Program-made: the position numbers and the translations under genes
NCBI GenBank assembly: GCA_964416445.1
Contig: CAYQEE010000002.1
Coordinates: forward strand, 106,691-170,690
Direction of reading: 5' to 3'
From: an uncultured Gammaproteobacteria bacterium
GTDB lineage: Bacteria; Patescibacteriota; Microgenomatia; Levybacterales; UBA12049
Length of the DNA stretch: 64,000 nt
Notes under the pieces: model-generated
Database searches by the model: none
Told to the model about the DNA's origin: nothing
Seen by the model: the letters and a program-made list of their open reading frames with translations, nothing else
In this document: piece after piece, positions 14,799-43,678 of the stretch
Numbering within the stretch: the first letter of the stretch is position 1
How the letters are laid out: the number at the start of each line of letters is the position of its first letter

Positions 14799-16052
14799 TT
14801 ACGAGTATGCATTAAGTATTTCTTTCGAAATTACAGTGAGACCTGCTAAAACTGAAGCTTCATCTTGGCTATAAGTTATTCGTAGACACTCATCTTTTTG
14901 TTTCCATTTTTCATCGAGTCCTGGATAGAAATATTTCCCTGGAACAACTAATACTCCCTTTGCTTTTAATCGTTGATAAAGTTCATATGAACTTATTGGT
15001 AAATCTTTACACCAAAGCCATAAAAATAAAGCTCCTTCGCTTTTATGTAGGAAATACGGAATAGTACTCCCTTTCATTAACTGATGAAAATGAGCGACAG
15101 CAGTTTCAGACTTTCTTAAATAAAATGGCTTTATGATATTATTACTTATCTCCATAATTTTTCCATTAGTAAACAACGGTAATGTTAAATGCTGTCCAAG
15201 AGTTCCCGTAGAAAGTGACACAATAGCATTAAAGCTTGAAAGATAACTTGTTATTTCTTCGTTTGCAATAACAATTGCTGTACGTGTACTTGGTAAACCA
15301 ATTTTTGATAATGTAAGAACATACACAACATGTTCACTCCAAACTGGAGAAATATCTGTAAAAAGTATATTGGGAAAAGGTGTTCCATACGCGTTATCGA
15401 TAATAAGAGGAATATTATTCGTTTTTGCTAACACATGTAAACGATCCATTTCTGAATCGGTAATCACATTACCTGTAGGATTAGTTGGGCGAGAAACACA
15501 GAGAGCAGCTATATTAGATTGTATCTTGATCTTTTCAAAATTTATATGATATTTAAATGTATGATCATCGAGAAAACTAATAGTTGGTTTCACCGCAGTA
15601 AATAGATTCTCACTAATACCTTGGTCTGCATAACCAATATATTCAGGAACAAGCGGCAATAATATTTTTCTATACTCATCTTCTGATTCGCCAGCAAGCA
15701 TATTGAATAAGTAAAAGAAGGTTGTTTGACTACCATTTATTATGGAGACATTTTTCGAACTTATATTCCATCCATATTGATTATGAAAAAATGTAGCAAT
15801 TGCGTTAATAAACTCATTACTACCTTGTGGAGTCGTATAATTTCCTAGTAATTTTTCAAGTTCACCTTGATTATTTGCTATTTCAGTCCATCTGTCTCTC
15901 CATATTGATTCTACAGCTGGAATATGAGCAGGATTTCCTCCGCCTAACATAAGCATCTTTTGTTGCCCATCCAATGCTTGCCCAAGATCGTCCATTAACT
16001 CCAAAATACCTGTTTTTCTAGTAAGTTTTTTCCCAAAATTTGATAATTTCAT
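14799..16052 (-). CDS. avtA: valine--pyruvate aminotransferase-like class I aminotransferase
   Basis: N-terminus LSNFGKKLTRKTGILELMDDLG...MLGGGNPAHIP closely resembles the AvtA family. Sits at the end of the ilv operon. Confidence 0.6.
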   Translation of the reverse strand: MKLSNFGKKLTRKTGILELMDDLGQALDGQQKMLMLGGGNPAHIPAVESIWRDRWTEIANNQGELEKLLGNYTTPQGSNEFINAIATFFHNQYGWNISSKNVSIINGSQTTFFYLFNMLAGESEDEYRKILLPLVPEYIGYADQGISENLFTAVKPTISFLDDHTFKYHINFEKIKIQSNIAALCVSRPTNPTGNVITDSEMDRLHVLAKTNNIPLIIDNAYGTPFPNILFTDISPVWSEHVVYVLTLSKIGLPSTRTAIVIANEEITSYLSSFNAIVSLSTGTLGQHLTLPLFTNGKIMEISNNIIKPFYLRKSETAVAHFHQLMKGSTIPYFLHKSEGALFLWLWCKDLPISSYELYQRLKAKGVLVVPGKYFYPGLDEKWKQKDECLRITYSQDEASVLAGLTVISKEILNAYS

Positions 16053-16083: not shown

Positions 16084-17844
16084 TTATGAAGTAACTGCTC
16101 CTTCTGAAGCATTCGATACTAATTTTGCATATTTTGCTAAAATTCCTCGTTTATATCGAGAAGTTGGTGCTTTCCATTTTGCTCGTCTATCTGAAATTTC
16201 TTTATCTGTTACTAAAAGGTTCATTGTTTTAGTTTTTAAACTAATTTCTATATTATCCCCATCTTGAACAAGAGCAATGAGACCTCCTTCTTGAGCCTCG
16301 GGAGTTACATGGCCAATCATGTATCCGTGGGTTCCTCCTGAAAAACGTCCATCAGTAACAAGAGCAACATCCTTTCCTAATCCTGCCCCCATAAGTGCTG
16401 CTGATGGAGAAAGCATTTCTCTCATACCGGGACCTCCTTTGGGACCTTCATAACGAATGAATATTACATCCCCCTTATTAATTTTGCCATTCAAAATTGC
16501 ATCTAGTGCCTCTTCCTCTCTATTGAACACTCTTGCTATACCTTTATGAAGTTCAATTTCCTTACCTGAAAGTTTCATCACGGCACCACCTGAAGCTAAA
16601 TTACCCCTCATAATAACAATATGGTGACCTGCAGGTGCGAGGGGTTTTTGGACTGAATAGATAATATTCTGATCCTTTGGTAAAAGAGGAGCGTCTTTTA
16701 CATTTTCTCCGAGCGTTTTCCCTGTTACGGTAAGGCAATCTCCATGAAGTAATCCAGCATCAAGTAAATGCTTCATTACCATCGTAGATCCACCAATATT
16801 AAAGAGATCTTCCATTACATATTTTCCGGATGGTTTAAAATTACCAATAAGAGGGGTTTTCTCACCAATTCTTTCAAAATCATCCAGCGTAAGTTTTACA
16901 TTTGCTTCATGAGCAAGCGATAATAAGTGAAGAACAGCATTTGTAGAACCATTTAATGCCATAACAATAGTAATTGCGTTTTCAAATGCTTCTCGCGTCA
17001 TTATATCCCTCGCACGAATACCTTTTTTGAGTAAATTAAATAACGCTTTTACTGAATTAATACAATCTTGACGCTTATAGACTGAAATATTGTTATGAAT
17101 ATCAACTGCGGGATGAGATGAACTTCCCGGCACACTCATGCCTAATGCTTCAATTGCTAATGCCATGGTATTTGCAGTGTACATACCACCACATGATCCA
17201 TTTCCAGGACAAGCATGACACTCAATTTCATGAAGTTCCTTCTCATCCATTTTTCCCGCAGCATATGAACCTACCGCTTCAAAGAGACTGACAATAGTTA
17301 AGTCTTCCCCTTTATATTTTCCTGGTAGAATCGTTCCACCATAAAGTGTCAATCCAATGCTGTTATTCCTAGCTAAAGGAATTAATGCAGCAGGAATTGT
17401 TTTATCGCAACCACTAAGAGTTAATGCTCCATCTGCCGCGTATGCTTCATGCATTGCTTCTATACAATCAGCAATAAGTTCTCGAGAAACTAATGAGTAC
17501 TTCATTCCTTCAGTTCCCATCGTCTCTCCATCAGTAATTACTGGAGTACCAAAAATAATAGGCTTACCATTATTCTTGTCTATTTCTTCACATATTATTT
17601 TTCCTAAAGTTTGGATATGGGCGTTACAAGGAGTAATGTTTGTATAAGGACAGGCAACTGTCACCAATGGTTTTTCAAAATCCTCATCAGTATAACCAAC
17701 AGCTCTCATCATCGCTCTCGCGGGTGCTCGTCTTACCCAATCATCACTTTCTCGATTTCCAGTTAACTGATGACTTCTCTGCTTAAGAGATCGTGAGGTA
17801 TTTGTACATTCACAATTATCACATGAACAATTCGTTTTATTCAT
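16084..17844 (-). CDS. ilvD: dihydroxy-acid dehydratase
   Basis: [16 protein letters not shown] Fe-S motif and overall ILVD/EDD pattern. Confidence 0.9.
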
Positions 17845-17854
17845 ACGTAAGTAA

Positions 17855-19099
17855 TTATATCAAATAATCATATAGCAACTCTTCGCTAGACAATATTCGA
17901 AAATTTAGTTCCGCTTTCTTCATTCGTTCTAAAAGTGGTTGTAAATCTTTTTTATCACGAAGTTCGATACCAACGAGTGCAGCACCTTTCTCTTTGTTTG
18001 TTTTTTTCATATATTCAAATCGAACAATATCATCTGTTGGGCCGAGTGCACTATCTACAAACTTTCGTAATTGTCCTGGCTTTTGGGTAAATTGAATGAT
18101 AATATAATGCTTTCGTCCCTGGTAAACCAGACTTCGTTCCATAATATCTGGATATCGAAGAATGTCATTGTTTCCTCCACTCAATATACAGACAACAGTT
18201 TTACCGATAATTTCTTTTGAAACAGCGTCAAGTGCAGAAACAGAAAGTGCACCGGCAGGTTCAGCAATGATTCCTTCATTTTGGTAAAGTTCTATCATTG
18301 TTGTACAATCTTTACCCTCAGGAATTAACACAATTTGCTTAACATTATTTTTACAAATAAGAAAAGTACTCTTACCAACAGTTTGAACTGCAGCTCCATC
18401 GACAAAAGTATCTATTTTTTGAAGTGTTATGATTTTGTCTTGCTTAATAGATTCGTACATACTTGGTGACCCTAAAGGTTCAGCTCCAATAATCATAATT
18501 TTATTATTTTTTTGTTTGAGATACGAAGAAATTCCAGAAATTAATCCTCCACCTCCTATTGCAGCAATAACAATATCAACATTTCCTTTCAATTCATCAT
18601 AAACTTCTTTGCCGACTGTACCTTGCCCAGAAATTGTCAAAAAATCATCAAAAGGATGAACATATATCGCATTTTTTTCTTTACAATAGTTTTTAGCTGC
18701 CTTACTTGATTCATCATAGGTATTTCCCACGAGACGAACCTCTGTATATTTTCCCCCAAAGTGTTTTACTTTCTCAATTTTTTGATTAGGAGTAACAATT
18801 GGCATAAAGATCACTCCTTTTATTCGCAGTTCAGAACAACTAAAGGCTACACCTTGTGCATGATTTCCCGCGCTTGCACAGACAACTCCCCTGCTTCGTT
18901 CTTCTGAGGTTAATGTCGCCATTTTGTTATAAGCACCTCGTATTTTAAAGGATCGAACTTCTTGTAAATCTTCCCTCTTTATATAAATTTTCGCATTATA
19001 CTTTTGAGAAAGTCTCTTTGAGAATTGTAAAGGAGTCTTTGCAATAACTTTTTCAAGTCTTTTTGCTGCTTCATCAATCTGTTTAATAGTTATTAACAT
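17855..19099 (-). CDS. ilvA: threonine ammonia-lyase (biosynthetic threonine dehydratase)
   Basis: PLP fold SFKIRGA, GNHAQG and GGGGL motifs, with a C-terminal regulatory-like domain. Confidence 0.85.
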
Positions 19100-19110
19100 A
19101 ATTTAATATT

Positions 19111-19157
19111 AAAAAACCCGCATTTCGCGGGAATCTGTTTTTACGAAATCAGATTCC
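19111..19157 (-). promoter_or_regulatory. ilvA attenuator: antiterminator GGAAUCUG/CAGAUUCC and intrinsic terminator CCCGCGAAAUGCGGG-U6, ending 12 nt before the ilvA ATG
   Basis: Read on the minus strand. The hairpin plus U6 directly precedes the start codon, and its 5' arm overlaps an alternative 8-bp helix with the region just after the leader stop codon. Confidence 0.6.
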
Positions 19158-19158
19158 G

Positions 19159-19209
19159 CTACATACGGTTACTAATTGCAATAATTGAAATTTGTTTTAC
19201 GTTTCTCAT
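19159..19209 (-). CDS. Ile-rich leader peptide MRNVKQISIIAISNRM (ilvA leader, 16 aa)
   Basis: ATG begins 17 nt after the ilvC stop. Four Ile within ISIIAI. The stop is followed immediately by the antiterminator/terminator. Confidence 0.6.
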   Translation of the reverse strand: MRNVKQISIIAISNRM

Positions 19210-19225
19210 TTTAAATACACTGTTA

Positions 19226-20275
19226 TTATTTTTGGTTTTCTGGCCTCAATTCACGAACTTTTCTTCCAGTTGTCCACATCTCACTATTTTTTATAGCAAC
19301 TAATTCCTGTTGTAATTTCTCCCGATAATCAGGTTTACTGTTGGCTACAATTGTAATTTCAGCTTCGTTTCCACTTTTAACGCTTTGATATAAATCTTCA
19401 AATACTGGTTCTACTGCTTTTCGAAATTTATCTTTCCAATCAAGCGCACCTCGCTGAGCCGTCGTAGAACAATTAGCAAACATCCAATCCATTCCATTTT
19501 CACCAATAAGGGGGTATAAACTTTGCGTTGCCTCCTCTACTGTTTCATTAAAAGCTTCCGATGGGCTATGACCATGTTTTCGCAATAAATTATATTGTGC
19601 TTCCATTAAACCAGCGATTGCACCCATTAATACACCTCTTTCCCCAGTCAAATCGCTATAGACTTCCTTCTCCAAAGTTGTTGGAAAAAGAAAACCAGAA
19701 CCCACACCAATCCCCATTGCTTTTACGACATCGTGCGCACGTCCGGATGGATCTTGATACACGGCATAACTAGAATTTATTCCTTTCCCTTCCAAAAAAT
19801 GTTTCCGTACTGTTCTTCCTGATCCCTTTGGAGCAATAAGAATTACATCGACATCCTTTGGAGGAATTATTTTTGTTTTTTTAGAAAATGTGACACCAAA
19901 CCCGTGAGAAAAATAAAGAGTTTTCCCTCTTGTTAAATTCTTTTTTATTGTCGGCCATAGAGCAATCTGTGCAGCATCTGAAAGTAAAAAACAGATAATT
20001 GTTCCTTTTTTAACTGCTTCTTCAATTGAAAATAATGTTTTGCCTTCAACCCAACCATCTGCCTGCGCTTTTGTATATGTATTTGACGGTTTTCGCTGAC
20101 CAACAATAACATTAAATCCATTATCTCGCATATTTAATGCTTGTGCTGGACCTTGAACACCATATCCAATAACGGCAATAACATCATTCTTTAATACCTC
20201 TCGGGCTTTTTCTAAAGGAAATTCATCTCGCGTTACAACTTCCTCTTGATACCCACCAAAATTCATTTTTGCCAT
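19226..20275 (-). CDS. ilvC: ketol-acid reductoisomerase
   Basis: MAKMNFGG...VIGYGVQGPAQALN Rossmann N-terminus; the ORF track extends upstream to 20320. Confidence 0.9.
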   Translation of the reverse strand: MAKMNFGGYQEEVVTRDEFPLEKAREVLKNDVIAVIGYGVQGPAQALNMRDNGFNVIVGQRKPSNTYTKAQADGWVEGKTLFSIEEAVKKGTIICFLLSDAAQIALWPTIKKNLTRGKTLYFSHGFGVTFSKKTKIIPPKDVDVILIAPKGSGRTVRKHFLEGKGINSSYAVYQDPSGRAHDVVKAMGIGVGSGFLFPTTLEKEVYSDLTGERGVLMGAIAGLMEAQYNLLRKHGHSPSEAFNETVEEATQSLYPLIGENGMDWMFANCSTTAQRGALDWKDKFRKAVEPVFEDLYQSVKSGNEAEITIVANSKPDYREKLQQELVAIKNSEMWTTGRKVRELRPENQK

Positions 20276-20325: not shown

Positions 20326-22014
20326 TTATACATACTTATCAATATATTCCACTAATCTCTTTAGCCCTTCGCGTAATTTGTCCTCGTCTAATCCGTATGA
20401 TATACGAATGTGACTTTCTCCACCTAAGCCAAAAGCGCTTCCAGGGACAATTGCAACTTTTGCCTCATGAATAAGTCGTACTGCTAAATCATAATCATCA
20501 ATATTCCCTTCAACTTTTGCAAATGCATAATAAGCTCCTTCCGGAGTTACTAATTTTATTTTTTGAGATTTGTTCAACACTTCAACAACTACTGCACGTC
20601 TTTTTTCAAATGCTTCTTTATACTGAGCTACCATTGTTTGCTTGCCTTTTATTGCAGCAAGTGCGGCATATTGAGATACTGCAGTTGGACAAGTAACTAA
20701 TGAATCATGTATTTTAAATATTTGAGTAATAAGTTTTTTATTGGCAATAATATATCCAATTCTCCACCCTGTCATAGCATACGACTTAGATACGCCAAAA
20801 ATTGAAATGACACGATCACTTACTTCTTTAAAACTACCTATGCTAATATGCTTTTTGCTATCAAAAGTAAAATATTCATAAATCTCATCCGATATGATAA
20901 ATAAGTTATATTGTATCGCGATACGAGCTATCTGCTGTAGCTCATCATATGTATATACTTTTCCTGTCGGATTGCATGGATTACAAACAAGAATTGCTTT
21001 TGTTTGTTGAGTTATAGCTCCTTCAACTTTTGATGAATCAAAAATCCACCCATTTTCTGTCTCTGTTAATGGAACAAAAATTGGCCTACCTCCGTGACGA
21101 GCAATTCTTGTTTGTGTAATATGCGACGCATAATCAGGCGTTAAGACAATAATTTCATCATTTGGATTTAACAGCGCAATAAAAGTTGCCATAAGTGCTT
21201 CAATAGCACCATGTGTTACAAGAACTTGGTCTTTTGAAACAATAATTTTATTATCCTTTCTGACTTTTGTAACAATTGCTTCTCGCAGCGCGTCGATTCC
21301 ATAACCAGAAGTATATTTATCTGTTTTTCCCGACTTTATTGCTTCTATAGCAGCTTCTTTGATAGAGTCATCAGTATTGAATGACGGAATACCTTGTGCA
21401 AGAGAAATAACGTCTTCTTGGGATTCCGCCATTAATTGCAATCGTTTAATAGCTGATACTTCAATTGAAGAAGCCACATATGATGGCTCTTTAACAACAT
21501 CCGAAAACTTGCCAGTATACGCATTACCTTCTTTTGTTAAGGCAATTCTGCCTGAACGCACGTATTCTTTAATTCCAAACGGTTTCAGTAGAGAATATAA
21601 TGAATTAATCTCTTCTTCGGAACCAGATTTTTCAATCGTAACAAAATCACTCCCGACATAAACAATTTTTGCTCGAAACAAATAAACAAGATCTTCTACT
21701 TCCCTTCTTTGATCGGGATTTTTTGTTGCTACTTTTATAAGTGAGATTTCTTTGAATAAAAGCTCCTCATCTGTTTTTTCAAACACTTTAACAACTTCGA
21801 TAATTCTATAAAGTTGTTTTACTATTTTTTCGATTATATGTGAGTCCGTTTTAACAACTACAGTAAACCGCGAAAGACCTTTTGTTTCAATTTCTGAAAC
21901 TGTTAAACTTTCAATATTAATTTTCCGTCGGAGGAATAAATCCGCAATTCGATAAAGCACACCGGGTTTATTATCGGTAAAAATAATGATTGTATATTGT
22001 TTTATATTTTTCAT
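20326..22014 (-). CDS. ilvH: fusion protein: acetolactate synthase small/regulatory subunit (ACT plus ALS_ss_C, about aa 1-175) joined in frame to a class I (aspartate/aromatic-type) aminotransferase (about aa 190-562)
   Basis: N-terminus IIIFTDNKPGVLYRIADLFLRRKINIESL (IlvH ACT). C-part AQGIPSF...YTSGYG...GWRIGY fold-type I PLP aminotransferase. Single uninterrupted 562-aa ORF. Confidence 0.7.
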   Translation of the reverse strand: MKNIKQYTIIIFTDNKPGVLYRIADLFLRRKINIESLTVSEIETKGLSRFTVVVKTDSHIIEKIVKQLYRIIEVVKVFEKTDEELLFKEISLIKVATKNPDQRREVEDLVYLFRAKIVYVGSDFVTIEKSGSEEEINSLYSLLKPFGIKEYVRSGRIALTKEGNAYTGKFSDVVKEPSYVASSIEVSAIKRLQLMAESQEDVISLAQGIPSFNTDDSIKEAAIEAIKSGKTDKYTSGYGIDALREAIVTKVRKDNKIIVSKDQVLVTHGAIEALMATFIALLNPNDEIIVLTPDYASHITQTRIARHGGRPIFVPLTETENGWIFDSSKVEGAITQQTKAILVCNPCNPTGKVYTYDELQQIARIAIQYNLFIISDEIYEYFTFDSKKHISIGSFKEVSDRVISIFGVSKSYAMTGWRIGYIIANKKLITQIFKIHDSLVTCPTAVSQYAALAAIKGKQTMVAQYKEAFEKRRAVVVEVLNKSQKIKLVTPEGAYYAFAKVEGNIDDYDLAVRLIHEAKVAIVPGSAFGLGGESHIRISYGLDEDKLREGLKRLVEYIDKYV

Positions 22015-22016
22015 AC

Positions 22017-23702
22017 TTATTCTAATCGTATTTCATGAACTGCAGCTCCACTTGGAACCATAGGAAATACTTTAGTTTCTTTTTTAACTTTTATTTCCAA
22101 AAGATATGGGTTTTTTGATGTAAATAATGTATCCAATGCTTTATCTAAATCACTTCTACGCTCTACTTTTTGTGCGTCGATATAGAATCCTTTTGCCACT
22201 GCGACGAAATCAGGATTTTGTAATTCTACAAAAGAATATCTATTATCAAAAAACATTTGTTGCCATTGACGCACCATTCCTAAAAAATTGTTATTTAAAA
22301 TAATGATTTTTACCGGAATTTGTTCTTGAGCAAGCGTTGCAAGTTCCTGAATATTCATTTGGAAACTACCATCTCCAATTATCGCGATTACTTCTCTATT
22401 TGGAGAGGCAACCTTTGCTCCTAGTGCTGCAGGTAATGCAAAACCCATTGTCCCTGCACCTCCAGAAGTAATAAAACTATCTGGTTTCTGAAATTTATAA
22501 TACCGAGCCGCAATCATTTGATGTTGCCCAACGTCAGCAACAACTATTGCCTCACCTTTGGTCTTTTCAGAAATACGATTAATGACTTCAGCCATAATAA
22601 TTTCGCCTTCTTTCGGATGAATCTCGCTTTCTATTACTTTTTTGTTTTCCTCATTATCATATTTTCTAAACTCGTTAAGCCATTCATCATGCCTATTTGG
22701 TTTACTATAGGAAATTAGTTCTTCAAGAGCAATTTTAGCATTAGATACTATGGGAACTTCAGCCCGAACATTTTTGTTTAGTTCTGCAGGATCGATATCA
22801 ATATGAATTATTTTTGCATGTCGTGCATAATCAGATAATCTTCCTGTCACACGATCATCAAACCTCATACCAACAGCAAGTATCACATCTGCCTTATTAG
22901 TGAGTACATTTGGACCATAATTACCATGCATACCCAACATACCAACGTATAATGGATGACCTACTGGAAAGGCAGATAGACCAAGCAAGGTCGAAGCTAC
23001 TGGAATTCCAGTTTTTTCAACAAATTTCTTTATCTCATTTTCAGCTTTTCCTATGAGAACACCATGGCCAATAAACATAAGTGGACGTTTTGCGGCATTG
23101 AGTAAATCAGATGCTAATTTAATTTGCTTGATGTTGGGTACCAAAGTTGGTTGATAACTTGGAATTCGCATTCGCTTTGGATAAGAAAAATTTAAAAGAT
23201 CTATTTGTGCACTTTTCGTAACATCAATCAATACTGGTCCTGGCCTCCCTGTTTTCGCAATATGAAACGCTTTTGCAAATACTTCAGGTATTTCAGAAAC
23301 TTTTGTAATTTGATAATTCCATTTGGTAATAGGGGTACTAATACCTATAATATCCGCTTCCTGAAATGCATCGGAACCCAATAAATTTTCTGCCACTTGA
23401 CCAGTGATACACACAAGAGGAACAGAATCCATCATTGCATCCATTATCGGAGTAATTAAATTTGTGGCACCAGGACCAGAAGTTACCAATACCACCCCTG
23501 GTTCACCAGTCATTCTTGCATAACCTTCTGCCGCATGTCCCGCACCTTGTTCATGACGGACTAAAATATGTCGAATTTTTTCTTTATAGTCATAGAGTGC
23601 GTCATACACAGGCATGATTGCCCCTCCAGGATATCCAAATATTACTTTTACTTTTTCTGCAAGCAACGATTCGATTATTGCATGCGATCCATTCATTTTC
23701 AT
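22017..23702 (-). CDS. ilvB: acetolactate synthase large subunit (ThDP-dependent)
   Basis: GYPGGAIMPVYDAL, GDGSFQMN ThDP motif. Start set at MKMNGSH (23702), because the longer ORF would run through the attenuator terminator. Confidence 0.9.
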   Translation of the reverse strand: MKMNGSHAIIESLLAEKVKVIFGYPGGAIMPVYDALYDYKEKIRHILVRHEQGAGHAAEGYARMTGEPGVVLVTSGPGATNLITPIMDAMMDSVPLVCITGQVAENLLGSDAFQEADIIGISTPITKWNYQITKVSEIPEVFAKAFHIAKTGRPGPVLIDVTKSAQIDLLNFSYPKRMRIPSYQPTLVPNIKQIKLASDLLNAAKRPLMFIGHGVLIGKAENEIKKFVEKTGIPVASTLLGLSAFPVGHPLYVGMLGMHGNYGPNVLTNKADVILAVGMRFDDRVTGRLSDYARHAKIIHIDIDPAELNKNVRAEVPIVSNAKIALEELISYSKPNRHDEWLNEFRKYDNEENKKVIESEIHPKEGEIIMAEVINRISEKTKGEAIVVADVGQHQMIAARYYKFQKPDSFITSGGAGTMGFALPAALGAKVASPNREVIAIIGDGSFQMNIQELATLAQEQIPVKIIILNNNFLGMVRQWQQMFFDNRYSFVELQNPDFVAVAKGFYIDAQKVERRSDLDKALDTLFTSKNPYLLEIKVKKETKVFPMVPSGAAVHEIRLE

Positions 23703-23728
23703 AAAAAAAATCCCCGCTGTAAGCGGGG
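23703..23728 (-). terminator. ilvB attenuator terminator CCCCGCUUACAGCGGGG-U8, abutting the ilvB ATG
   Basis: Perfect 6-bp GC stem plus 8 U on the minus strand. An alternative pairing is available with the upstream GCGGGG segment (23757-23771). Confidence 0.65.
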
Positions 23729-23763
23729 TTAAGTTTGTTTGCTCCAAGCAATCAAACCCCGCG

Positions 23764-23811
23764 TTAAGGGGTAATGACGACAAGGAGTTTAAGTGTGCTT
23801 TTCAATATCAT
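23764..23811 (-). CDS. branched-chain leader peptide MILKSTLKLLVVITP (ilvB leader, 15 aa)
   Basis: Regulatory run LLVVIT. The stop codon lies inside segment CCCCUUAACGCGGGG. Confidence 0.65.
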   Translation of the reverse strand: MILKSTLKLLVVITP

Positions 23812-23817
23812 ACGTTT

Positions 23818-23846
23818 ATTCTAACAAATAGCGTTTTTGTCGTCAA
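23818..23846 (-). promoter_or_regulatory. sigma70-type promoter TTGACG-N17-TAGAAT for the ilvB leader
   Basis: Hexamers read on the minus strand. -10 ends 6 nt before the leader ATG. Confidence 0.5.
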
Positions 23847-36265: not shown

Positions 36266-37831
36266 TTATTTATTTACGACAGAGGCTTTTTTCCTATAAC
36301 GAGGATTATCAATAGTTATATATGATACCACTACGCTTAAGAACGCAAGAAATGCTGCTATACCAATAATCCATCTAAAGCCAAAGATAAATGACGTATC
36401 AATCACGTTGTAGGCAATGGCTGTAGCCTGAGAACTAAAATCTTTCGGTATTTCTATTCCTCCTAGTTTACTTCCTTGGCTACGAATTTCGTTTTGTTGA
36501 GAAATGTTCAGACCTGATGTTTGTAACTGATAATCAAGCCGATGTAAAAATAACGTTAAAATAATTGCTCCAAGTAAAGCAACAGCCAAAAGACCAGCTA
36601 TTCTCGCAATGGCGTTATTCACTCCTGAAGCAGCGCCAGAATATCGTCGATCAACTGCTAAGGCTGATTTTGTTAAGGGAGCTATAACAATTGCCATTCC
36701 TACACCAAAAAGAATCAAACCTGGCAAATACTGTAGGAAATAATTTGCATGCAACCCGGGGAAAATAAAGAGAAGCATTCCAACGGAAACAAGCAGTGGA
36801 CCAATTATCATAGGTAATCGAGGCCCAATTTTGTCTGCAACTGCTCCCGCAGGCCCTGAAAGAAAGGTGATTAGTAGAATTGTTGGTAGTAATCCCAAAC
36901 CAGCCATAATAGGTGAATACTTTTGTATTTGTTGAAAATTAAGCACAAGGAAAAATATAACTCCGTTTAAAGCAAAATAAAGAAATGTCGTTGCAATATT
37001 CGCTCCGATAACAAGTGGTGATTTAAAAAGTGAAAAAGGAACTAAAGGTTCTTGTGCATTCTTTTCGATAAGAATGAACAAAATAAAAAAGATAAAACCT
37101 CCAATAAGACTGGTTATAATACTCCAGTTCATCCATCCAAACGTAGGACCATTAATTAAACCATAAACAATTCCTAGTAGTGAGACAAGGATACATATTG
37201 TCCCAAACAAATCAATATTTTTTGCGTCTTGGTTTTTTGATTCAGGAACAAACCGAACAGTGATAAATAATGCTAATAAGCCCAAAGGAATATTAATATA
37301 AAATATCGATTGCCACCCCAAGGTTTGAACTAACCATCCACCTAAGAAAGGACCAAGTGCTGCAATCGCACCAGCGCATCCTGACCATAAACCAATAACC
37401 TTTCCTCTCTCTTGTTCCCTAAACGCGACATTAATAATACTCAAACTACCTGGGATCATCATTGCAGCACCAATTCCTTCTAGAGCACGATAAATTATTA
37501 ATTGCGTAGTAGTTTGAGCAATACTACATAAAAATGAAGCAAGAATAAATAAAGTAATACCATAAAGGAAAATCCTCTTTCGGCCAAATCTATCTCCAAG
37601 TGCGCCACTTATTAATATCAAAGCAGAAAGCATCAAGGAATAACCATTAATGATCCATTGCATATCAATAAGATTTGCATGAAATTTTGACTGAATAATA
37701 GGAATTGCAATATTTACTACTGTTCCATCAAGAAAAGACATACCGCTAGCTAAAACTGTAGCAAAAAGAATGAGCTTACCGATGAGATTTTTAAGAGAAT
37801 ATTGCTCCATAGCTGGATTATACCAGATCAA
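36266..37831 (-). CDS. MFS transporter, 14-TMS drug:H+ antiporter (DHA2)-like
   Basis: 521 aa, many TM segments, GxLaDrxGrkR-like motif (GDRFGRKR). Confidence 0.75.
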   Translation of the reverse strand: MIWYNPAMEQYSLKNLIGKLILFATVLASGMSFLDGTVVNIAIPIIQSKFHANLIDMQWIINGYSLMLSALILISGALGDRFGRKRIFLYGITLFILASFLCSIAQTTTQLIIYRALEGIGAAMMIPGSLSIINVAFREQERGKVIGLWSGCAGAIAALGPFLGGWLVQTLGWQSIFYINIPLGLLALFITVRFVPESKNQDAKNIDLFGTICILVSLLGIVYGLINGPTFGWMNWSIITSLIGGFIFFILFILIEKNAQEPLVPFSLFKSPLVIGANIATTFLYFALNGVIFFLVLNFQQIQKYSPIMAGLGLLPTILLITFLSGPAGAVADKIGPRLPMIIGPLLVSVGMLLFIFPGLHANYFLQYLPGLILFGVGMAIVIAPLTKSALAVDRRYSGAASGVNNAIARIAGLLAVALLGAIILTLFLHRLDYQLQTSGLNISQQNEIRSQGSKLGGIEIPKDFSSQATAIAYNVIDTSFIFGFRWIIGIAAFLAFLSVVVSYITIDNPRYRKKASVVNK

Positions 37832-42763: not shown

Positions 42764-43678
42764 TTAACTATCTTTACATATCTTTGTTCCGATAAAATCA
42801 GGGTTAAAAGTATTTTTTACCCAAACAGGTATTCCTTTTAGAGAGACAGGTATCATTGCCTCGGGATGTAAAATTTTTGCTCCCTTTTTTGAAAGCAATA
42901 AAGCATCTTCGTAGCTTAATTGAGAATATAACTTCGCATTTTGATTTACATGAGGATCACTACAATACACGCCGTTAACTTCTTTCCAAAGAATTACTTG
43001 CGTTGCATCGAAAATATAGGCAAGCAAAGTAGCACTATAATCAGAACCTCCCCTTCCTAAACTTATAATTGTTCCATTTTTTGTTGATGCAAAAAAACCT
43101 GTCACTATAGGAACTATTTTTTTTCTGATAAGTGGAACTACTAGCTTATCAGCGTTACATGTTGTTTCTTTCACAAGTACAATTGGATTGGATAAATCTT
43201 TCAAAATAATAATCTCCGAAGCATTTATTGCTCTTGCTGAATTCTCATACTTATTCAATGCCGCAGCTACTAGATGACTACTAAATCGTTCCCCATACGT
43301 TATGATATATTCATAATCAACTTGAGAAAGTGTCCTTCTCTGTTTCAAATTGTCTTGTAATGTTTTGTATAAATCATACAGAGATTCTTCTAGATTCTGG
43401 AAAATATTTTTGGGTAATTGTAACTCTTTAAGAACCTGCATATGAAGTTCATAGAGCAGTCGCAATTCATAATCTCCTTCTTCAAATTCGTTTTCTTTAT
43501 ATTTATTAAATACTGAGATAAGTTTATCTGTTACCTTGTACATTGCGGAGACGACAACAAGAATATCGTCATGCCTGCGAAATTTTCTAATAATTTCAGC
43601 TACATGTAATATCTTACCTCCAGACTCTAGTGATGATCCACCAAATTTCATTACAATCATACTCTGTTTTATAAACAT
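42764..43678 (-). CDS. aspartate kinase, catalytic domain only (304 aa, no ACT regulatory domains)
   Basis: VMKFGGSSL N-terminal motif of the amino-acid kinase family. Too short to hold the usual two C-terminal ACT domains. Confidence 0.75.
   Translation of the reverse strand: MFIKQSMIVMKFGGSSLESGGKILHVAEIIRKFRRHDDILVVVSAMYKVTDKLISVFNKYKENEFEEGDYELRLLYELHMQVLKELQLPKNIFQNLEESLYDLYKTLQDNLKQRRTLSQVDYEYIITYGERFSSHLVAAALNKYENSARAINASEIIILKDLSNPIVLVKETTCNADKLVVPLIRKKIVPIVTGFFASTKNGTIISLGRGGSDYSATLLAYIFDATQVILWKEVNGVYCSDPHVNQNAKLYSQLSYEDALLLSKKGAKILHPEAMIPVSLKGIPVWVKNTFNPDFIGTKICKDS

Follow-up and report, generated by a model that had tools for sequence, protein, structure and literature searches.

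The 64,000-nt window analyzed here, taken from contig CAYQEE010000002.1 (positions 106,691 to 170,690 of the forward strand), carries on its minus strand an ilv gene cluster, and our analysis concerns a short element (19111-19209) located between ilvC and ilvA. All genes from ilvB to avtA lie on the minus strand and are separated by short spacers. The cluster begins with ilvB, encoding the acetohydroxyacid synthase (AHAS) large subunit (22017-23702; NCBIfam), followed by a gene for a 562-aa fusion of an ACT-type IlvN with an aminotransferase (20326-22014; NCBIfam, Pfam) and by ilvC for ketol-acid reductoisomerase (19226-20275; NCBIfam TIGR00465, E 1e-95). The latter codes for 349 aa from the ATG at 20275, and a gene call of 349 aa is also found for ilvC in public contigs. 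The contig itself is represented in the sequencing runs SRR12266071, -72, -74, and -77. Downstream of the element lie ilvA for threonine ammonia-lyase (17855-19099), ilvD for dihydroxy-acid dehydratase (16084-17844; NCBIfam), which starts 10 nt past ilvA, and the last cluster gene, avtA, for valine--pyruvate transaminase (14799-16052; NCBIfam NF006964, E 2e-178). A preliminary description of the window, made from the letters and a list of open reading frames (ORFs), had named the genes in the same way with the exception of ilvH, in place of which we find the 562-aa fusion. It had also taken the gene behind the element to be threonine dehydratase, and this is supported by NCBIfam NF006390 (E 2e-184). 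The predicted IlvA is the short form of the enzyme (414 aa; Pfam PALP and Thr_dehydrat_C) with one C-terminal regulatory domain. IlvA performs the committed step to isoleucine (Ile).

The element opens with a small leader ORF, ATG-MRNVKQISIIAISNRM-TAG (19159-19209, minus strand), composed of 16 codons and a stop (ATG AGA AAC GTA AAA CAA ATT TCA ATT ATT GCA ATT AGT AAC CGT ATG TAG). Its ATG is at 19209 and its TAG at 19161-19159; 16 nt separate it from the ilvC stop codon (TAA, 19228-19226), and the ATG thus begins at the 17th nucleotide, exactly where an ORF coding for ISIIAI had been described. Four of the 16 codons are AUU codons for Ile, placed at codons 7, 9, 10, and 12 (19174-19191), and form the presumed regulatory block, as expected for a leader-peptide attenuator. 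Because the leader lies only 16 nt past the ilvC stop, it is possible that ribosomes leaving ilvC re-initiate on it. At the triplet composition of the window, in which Ile accounts for 9% of sense triplets, the probability of at least 4 Ile in 15 codons equals 0.04. At least 4 Ile within 6 codons occur in 10 of the 712 small ATG ORFs of the window, and among these ten the ilvA leader is the only one that precedes a terminator-like hairpin. Taken by itself, the ORF thus exceeds chance expectation only mildly; in its context, a chance origin of the leader is unlikely.

Two hairpins follow. The antiterminator (regions 2:3; 19127-19159) is formed by GCGGAAUCUG (19159-19150) and CAGAUUCCCGC (19137-19127), with a predicted dG of about -11.7 kcal/mol, and its 5′ arm starts at the G of the leader UAG stop. 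The intrinsic terminator (regions 3:4; 19111-19131), with a dG of about -8.3 kcal/mol, consists of CCCGC-GAAAU-GCGGG (19131-19117) and a U6 tract (19116-19111), and was listed independently by a pattern scan. Since CCCGC is common to the 3′ arm of the antiterminator and the 5′ arm of the terminator, the two structures are mutually exclusive, as they have to be in an attenuator. Between the U tract and the ilvA ATG (19099) there are 11 nt, the ATG beginning at the 12th, in agreement with the spacing counted earlier. The terminator had been given in the preliminary description as CCCGCGAAAUGCGGG and stands unchanged. The antiterminator, given as GGAAUCUG...CAGAUUCC, is present but extends further than was thought: GCGGAAUCUG pairs with CAGAUUC(C)CCGC, and where two C residues had been assumed to be shared, the entire 5′ terminator arm is taken up. 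A further segment, region 1 (CCGUAU, 19163-19168, leader codons 14-16), pairs in minimum free energy (MFE) folds of the naked RNA with AUGCGG of region 4, and an equivalent CCGC:GCGG pairing was found in related leaders. In the naked RNA the 1:4 and 2:3 pairings are nested in one long hairpin. The U tract directly adjoins the base of this hairpin, and termination is therefore expected of untranslated RNA as well. The minus-strand folding check proposed in the preliminary description was in favor of structure, with the 136-nt region folding better than its dinucleotide shuffles (z = -3.2). Within the window, the motif CCCGC-N3-8-GCGGG-T5+ is confined to the ilvA element and its sister attenuators before ilvB and leuA.

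To place the element among its relatives, we combined a metagenome scan with exact-protein look-ups of the closest IlvA homologues and read the DNA upstream of ilvA. Eight related metagenomic loci, referred to below by number (IlvA 70-75% identical), share the design directly upstream of ilvA. Their leaders are MNSLFVNTIIISIITR (L088), MKFDLINIIIINR (L167), MNFQNLIGIMMIINR (L168), MKFDLINVIIINR (L169), MNIQNLIGIIMIINR (L170), MNLQLFNFQNLISMIIDR (L173), MNFQNFIGMIIINR (L175), and MEKTILGVINIIMYR (L174); L174 and L175 were added later and were recognized by eye. In the nine loci including the window (IlvA 70-100% identical) an Ile-rich ORF of 13-18 codons lies next to ilvA, with 3-6 Ile in the eight relatives, and the last Ile codon is located 2-4 codons ahead of the stop in each of the nine. 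The ORF ends with CCGC-stop in the relatives and with CCGU-AUG-stop in the window. None of these nine small ORFs carries a gene call in the public contigs. Measured from the first base of the stop, the antiterminator starts its 5′ arm at a distance of 2-9 nt. This hairpin, at -11.7 to -16.4 kcal/mol, has CC(C)GC in common with the terminator, which is the weaker of the two (-5.5 to -10.6 kcal/mol). In all nine cases the terminator has the build of an intrinsic one, with a GC stem of 4-6 bp and a U6-9 tract, and its distance to the ilvA ATG ranges from 0 to 119 nt.

The sequences of these elements have diverged, yet their pairing is retained. The inner helix reads AAUCUG/CAGAUU in the window, GUUGUUUG/CAAACAGAC in most loci, GGUUUG/CAAAC.C in L088, and GGGGUUUUUGG/CCAAUAACCC in L174, and in each case the two arms are complementary. 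Despite sequence divergence, the nine loci hence retain the ORF with its codon bias as well as the alternative helices. At L169, ilvC is followed by two unrelated small genes before the leader is reached, and the leader terminator still abuts the ilvA ATG; the element stays at ilvA when split from ilvC, which indicates that it belongs to ilvA. The preliminary description had made its proposal dependent on an Ile-rich ORF in relatives, and the eight loci keep both this ORF and the two hairpins. We regard these comparative data, drawn from sequence alone, as decisive in lifting the ilvA leader well beyond what chance would be expected to produce.

By a pattern search for the scaffold CCGC - stop - GCGGG..GUUUG / CAAAC..CCCGC / GCGGG-Un we found sister elements before other genes. 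The front of the ilv cluster carries a complete control region (23703-23846, minus strand) composed of a promoter (TTGACG-17-TAGAAT, 23846-23818), a leader ORF MILKSTLKLLVVITP* (23811-23764) with Leu, Val, Ile, and Thr codons, an antiterminator, and a terminator, CCCCGCUUACAGCGGGG (23728-23712) plus AU8, whose end lies a single base short of the ilvB ATG at 23702. All parts of the front Leu/Val/Ile/Thr checkpoint postulated earlier are accordingly present. The scaffold also precedes ilvB in L170 (MNKLLIIVLNVLSA), L173 (MKNLSVIILSVLSA), and L174 (MTISLNTLVLFIIIAN), where the leaders contain mixed Leu/Ile/Val codons, and it stands at the front of the L171 cluster with the leader MKNNSSLIYVLLINHA. 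In the window, a third copy (33884-33786, minus strand) lies directly before leuA (33774-32281), behind a TTGACG-18-TACAAT promoter; its leader, MIKNLLLGLSLLSV* (33884-33840), has 6 Leu in 14 codons. Downstream of leuA, leuC, leuD, and leuB-sized ORFs extend down to 29170. The amino acid content of the leaders differs significantly by target: Ile makes up 31 of 99 residues in the ilvA leaders vs. 9 of 68 in the ilvB/leu leaders (Fisher p = 0.009), and Leu 8 of 99 vs. 20 of 68 (Fisher p = 0.0005). With Ile before ilvA, Leu before leuA, and a mixture before ilvB, the codon content tracks the regulated gene. In 12 of 12 folded family members the antiterminator (-11.7 to -24 kcal/mol) was more stable than the terminator (-7.7 to -13 kcal/mol), and region 3 was shared between the two. 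At the level of sequence, then, all predictions of the attenuator model appear to hold, and the Leu-rich leuA leader on the same scaffold adds to their support.

These comparisons bear on the simplest alternative, namely that the hairpin and U tract are a constitutive terminator of the ilvB-ilvN-ilvC transcript and that the small ORF arose by chance in AT-rich DNA and is not sensed. The frequency of Ile triplets and the P value of 0.04 for 4 of 15 codons agree with this view, as do the plain hairpins or palindromic repeats that most relatives carry in the ilvC-ilvA spacer and the ordinary terminators found in that spacer in Bacteroidota. However, nine loci keep an Ile-frame ORF from ATG to stop beside a hairpin competing with the terminator, despite divergence of both peptide and helix, and the element remains by ilvA once ilvC is moved away. 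In three loci ilvA moreover starts 0-11 nt past the hairpin and U tract, and if these were a constitutive terminator, no promoter for ilvA would be visible. Nor would a terminator with an accidental ORF be expected to give the codon-by-gene pattern of the sister elements, whose Leu or mixed codons match their downstream genes. We therefore consider a plain terminator very improbable.

Another issue is from where the transcripts that meet the element originate. A pattern scan of the minus strand (19866-19024) revealed no promoter-like site of at least 9/12 matches, in line with the preliminary description, in which no promoter-like hexamers were seen upstream. In the final 60 nt of ilvC, visual inspection and the scan gave a weak TTGAGG-15-TAATAA as the only candidate, which is not convincing. 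The 16-nt spacer between ilvC and the leader contains neither a hairpin nor a terminator. With no terminator there to stop them, polymerases that started at the ilvB promoter must run into the attenuator, and it is plausible from the sequence that in the window the element gates read-through from ilvB-ilvC. In several relatives, -10-like hexamers are found 12-16 nt upstream of the leader ATG (TTGGTT-16-TATAAT in L169, TTGCAA-17-TATACT in L088, and repeated TACAAT/TAGAAT in L168, L170, and L175), which indicates that the unit can also be driven by a promoter of its own.

A promoter at the end of ilvC or in the spacer might thus start a separate leader-ilvA-ilvD-avtA transcript, with read-through from ilvC being minor. 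Apart from the hexamers in these five relatives, such an arrangement would fit the L169 leader, which follows unrelated genes, as well as the promoters of this genome, often located 5-15 nt before the ATG; the -10 hexamers of the ilvB and leuA leaders are positioned 6 and 9 nt upstream of their ATGs. In the window, however, nothing better than TAATAA or TATTTA occurs in the 16-nt spacer and a usable -35 is lacking, no site reached the threshold of the scan, the corresponding spacer of L167 has only 11 nt, and read-through transcripts would reach the attenuator anyway, as no terminator follows ilvC. We judge a separate main transcript to be unlikely. The action of the element itself is unchanged if its own promoter is the main source of transcripts.

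Taken together, these data make it most likely that the element before ilvA is functional and acts as an Ile-specific, ribosome-mediated attenuator of transcription of the leader-peptide type. It would set the share of RNA polymerases past ilvC that continue into ilvA, and ilvD-avtA would be under the same control if ilvD lacks a promoter of its own. At ample charging of Ile-tRNA, the translating ribosome would reach the UAG and cover region 2, regions 3 and 4 would pair, and the polymerase would terminate 11 nt before ilvA. At a shortage of charged Ile-tRNA, stalling on the AUU codons would place the ribosome over region 1 and leave region 2 free; the 2:3 hairpin would then form first, region 4 would stay unpaired, and transcription would read through into ilvA. 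With no ribosome on the leader, regions 1 and 4 would pair around 2:3 and cause termination. The transcripts would most likely come from the ilvB promoter via ilvC, having passed the front attenuator that senses Leu, Val, Ile, and Thr codons, so that the ilv cluster would hold two codon-specific gates. The mechanism itself is textbook attenuation and leaves the understanding of attenuation unchanged. What is unusual is the Ile-only coding, the ilvA target, the place inside a cluster, and the phylum of the host.

A number of observations weigh against this interpretation. The product of ilvD is also required for the synthesis of Val and Leu, and its position behind an Ile-only gate is awkward unless the gate is leaky or ilvD has its own promoter. 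Leaky termination, an internal ilvD promoter, or a cluster tuned mainly by Ile could each resolve the difficulty. A perfect TATAAT (17859-17854, minus strand) overlaps the ilvA stop codon and lies 9 nt before the ilvD ATG, a spacing typical of the genome; it may serve as an internal promoter that frees ilvD-avtA from the Ile-only gate. The leader ORF, in addition, is not preceded by a Shine-Dalgarno-like motif. Such motifs are present within 20 nt of the start in only 9 of the 53 window ORFs of at least 150 aa and, with 44 of the 53 lacking them, their absence at the leader is uninformative.

Folding of the masked RNA also gave a mixed picture. We modeled the ribosome in silico as a mask covering about 10 nt past the A-site codon, using 12 family members. 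All 12 formed only the terminator when the A site was placed on the stop codon. When it was moved back to the last regulatory codon, the antiterminator alone was obtained in 4 of the 12 (the ilvA leaders of L167 and L168, the ilvB leader of L173, and the leuA leader of the window), and in the other members, including L088, L170, and the ilvA leader of L173, the terminator persisted. The same is true for the window element stalled at the last Ile, for which the MFE structure, a small 5′ hairpin plus the terminator (-14.5 kcal/mol vs. -11.7 kcal/mol for the antiterminator alone), retains the terminator. The switch would consequently have to be decided by kinetic, co-transcriptional folding.

On the comparative side, the number of independent lineages behind the nine loci is probably about five or six. 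Most close relatives in which ilvC and ilvA are adjacent lack the element and have palindromic repeats instead, which shows that it is dispensable: no Ile ORF was seen in L165 (76% IlvA identity), in L171, a Roizmanbacteria contig with the gene order leuA/cimA-ilvA, or in about a dozen other ilvC-ilvA loci, where palindromic repeats or plain hairpins occupy the site. A contig search with an IlvA alignment detected no ilvC-ilvA Ile leader among the listed homologues, all of them at most 53% identical and belonging to Bacteroidota, Firmicutes, Actinobacteria, and Rhodobacterales, so that the phylogenetic spread of the element is under-sampled; those from Bacteroidota have ordinary terminators in the ilvC-ilvA spacer. 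Covariation is modest. On the model-fitted alignment 79.9% of cells pair vs. 38-53% in slid controls, in only 3 pairs have both partners changed, and a covariation score as high was obtained with 20 of 500 shuffles. RNAalifold predicted no pairs on a MAFFT alignment of 14 antiterminators. The weak formal covariation arises because indels misalign the arms, and realignment to the covariance model R1 left the register of the outer helix unmended. When run over 374 kb of related loci, the R1 model recovered nothing beyond its 12 founding members.

A caution of another kind comes from the ilvB leader of Streptomyces coelicolor, which looks classical; mutation of its candidate regulatory codons did not affect regulation (PMC1262725). 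By analogy, control of ilvA in the window could be non-classical, exerted by a trans-acting protein or RNA on the GUUUG/CAAAC hairpin, through Rho-dependent effects, or at the level of ilvA translation, with stalling at Ile codons not being the signal. The GUUGUUUG...CAAACAG core is strongly conserved over the ilvA, ilvB, and leuA elements and could be a shared binding site, and in three loci the terminator and the ilvA ATG are 0-11 nt apart. A shared binding site, however, leaves the gene-dependent codon content unexplained, and the window has replaced the conserved core (AAUCUG/CAGAUU) yet kept its pairing. The range of terminator-to-ATG distances, from 0 to 119 nt, speaks against translational occlusion of the ilvA start, which was down-weighted for this reason. 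On balance, non-classical control seems improbable, and we retain ribosome-mediated attenuation as the preferred interpretation.

Searches for known regulatory RNAs gave no close counterpart. At gathering level, Rfam has no match in the window besides a tRNA. None of the curated leader families (Leu_leader RF00512, Thr_leader, His_leader, Trp_leader, Phe_leader, and others) reaches its gathering threshold; in a permissive search of 19050-19280 the best leader match was to Leu_leader RF00512, with 11.6 bits vs. a threshold of 50 (E 7.5). The T-box riboswitch (RF00230) did not match in 19050-19280 at E up to 10. T-box leaders are common before ilv and leu genes in Firmicutes, and, as is proposed for the ilvA element, they control read-through in an amino-acid-specific manner via tRNA charging, which the ilvA element would sense through the translation of codons.

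Among known leader-peptide attenuators are those of ilvGMEDA (ilvL), ilvBN (ivbL), and leu (leuL) in Escherichia coli and Salmonella. The ilvA element resembles them in having a short ORF rich in codons for the pathway product, alternative 2:3 and 3:4 hairpins, and an intrinsic terminator immediately before the first structural gene; as in them, ribosome position would be the sensor. In contrast to the multivalent ilvL (Leu, Val, Ile), it codes for Ile only and stands before ilvA alone, within the gene cluster. It further differs from the enterobacterial leaders by the lack of sequence or Rfam similarity, a terminator stem of 5 bp, no Shine-Dalgarno sequence, a Patescibacterium as the host, and a region 1 that pairs with region 4 more than with region 2.

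Internal positions have precedents. The trp attenuator of Bacillus subtilis lies within the aro supraoperon and is sensed by TRAP, and pheM of E. coli precedes pheST downstream of rplT and has its own promoter. As is proposed for the ilvA element, both meet polymerases from an upstream operon and divide the transcript. The B. subtilis trp attenuator does not use the ribosome as its sensor and pheM regulates a tRNA synthetase; neither splits one pathway cluster by the codons of its product. A literature search for an internal attenuator of this kind gave nothing, with many subscription papers outside its reach, and an earlier Ile leader before ilvA elsewhere is conceivable.

Attenuators of branched-chain amino acid (BCAA) genes have also been described outside Proteobacteria. 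Actinobacterial ilvB leaders (Corynebacterium glutamicum ilvBNC; predicted in Mycobacterium and Streptomyces) are short ORFs with runs of Ile, Val, and Leu codons, overlapping with terminator and antiterminator hairpins that poly-U follows (PMC1262725, PMC11857589). The front leader of the window (23811-23764) is directly analogous. They are, however, multivalent and located at the 5′ end of the operon, and none has been reported before ilvA. In Firmicutes, Staphylococcus aureus has a Leu-rich peptide upstream of ilvD, and Listeria has Rli60 (PMC5794164, PMC5864092). These leaders would share with the ilvA element the control of BCAA operons by ribosome-sensed peptides; they are placed at the operon front, the one of S. 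aureus senses Leu, and ilvA is at the far end of the operon without a gate of its own. As of 2010, leader-peptide systems were viewed as a feature of Proteobacteria and Actinobacteria only, to which Firmicutes had just been added (PMC2965389). Our full-text literature search returned no report of leader-peptide attenuation in the candidate phyla radiation (CPR)/Patescibacteria.

The host is here taken to be a member of the Microgenomates group of the CPR. The closest named relatives of its IlvA are from Candidatus Roizmanbacteria and the 'Patescibacteria group' (about 70-73% identity), the FtsH encoded in the window (8045-6168) is nearest to those of Levybacteria, Microgenomates, and Patescibacteria (75-77%), and the G+C content of the window is 35%. 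In this light, the elements described above suggest, with somewhat better than even probability in our estimation, that Microgenomates CPR possess modular ribosome-sensed attenuators in which one scaffold is recoded for each amino acid. One copy would sit inside the ilv cluster, where a single transcript would be checked twice, for any BCAA shortage and subsequently for Ile alone. If true, this would be direct sequence evidence for coupled transcription-translation regulation in the CPR, a lineage usually viewed as metabolically minimal, and would extend leader-peptide attenuation to Patescibacteria/CPR. It would imply that translation is coupled to transcription tightly enough for ribosome position to act as a sensor and that translation of the leader ORFs starts without Shine-Dalgarno sequences. 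It would also present a natural case of one attenuator scaffold recoded for different amino acids in one genome. The Ile copy before threonine dehydratase would be a compact design for synthetic biology and a test case for attenuator duplication and change of specificity. The element is of value for annotation as well, with leader ORFs that are uncalled publicly and a structure outside all Rfam models.

How translation may start in this organism is reflected in the promoter positions across the window. TATAAT-like hexamers lie 5-10 nt before the ATG of many window ORFs, e.g., those at 37810, 8045, 62234, 54350, and 52093. This suggests that leaderless or very short-leader mRNAs with Shine-Dalgarno-independent initiation are widespread in the window, and some of the leader ORFs are probably on leaderless mRNAs.

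A further candidate control region was noted upstream of the aspartate kinase gene. A T-box match below threshold (44028-43834, minus strand; 51.4 bits vs. a gathering score of 93, E 2e-10) ends in a CCGCC...GGCGG-U8 hairpin and lies upstream of the aspartate kinase ATG at 43678. A 22-codon ORF immediately behind it (43792-43724, minus strand), MQHYQYISISITTITQFVWECL*, contains 4 Ile and 4 Thr, similarly to thrL of E. coli, and is followed by GGGAG...CUCCC and by CCUCCCAAAGGGAGG-U7 (43700-43679), which abuts the aspartate kinase ATG. As read from the sequence, the aspartate kinase gene may therefore be under tandem control (44028-43676) by a T-box and then a Thr/Ile leader-peptide attenuator; if true, the presence of both on one leader would be unusual.

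Several features of the ilv cluster itself vary among the related loci. In the window, the AHAS small subunit (ACT domains and ALS_ss_C) is fused to a full-length class I/II aminotransferase (22014-20326). The same fusion is present in L167, L170, and L173, and most contigs with the fusion carry an ilvA leader; in L174 and L171 ilvN is separate, with no fusion. The Ile-gated unit consists of ilvA-ilvD-avtA in the window and of ilvA-ilvD-ridA (Ribonuc_L-PSP) in L167, L168, L170, and L173. RidA clears the reactive enamine produced by IlvA, which makes the linkage of ilvA with ridA functionally sensible.

Two kinds of repeats were observed in the spacers of these loci. Between the ilvC stop and the Ile leader, 3-5 tandem heptads of the type AATGTAC/AATGTAG/AATGTAA occur in L168 (1020-1063), L170 (5815-5864), and L175 (2790-2833); they are absent from the window and may be overlapping -10 elements or a binding site. 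In many related CPR contigs, intergenic spacers repeatedly contain long palindromic repeats of the type GTCATTGCGAGCG...CGCTCGCAATGAC or GTCATTCCGAGCGGAG...CTCAGGATGAC. They are found in the ilvC-ilvA spacers of L096, L099, L102, L114, L120, and L123, as well as in L173 (5385-5430), L175 (2950-2990), and L088 (2905-2990), and sometimes adjoin the attenuator. By their sequence, these palindromes look like a dispersed family of REP- or MITE-like elements.

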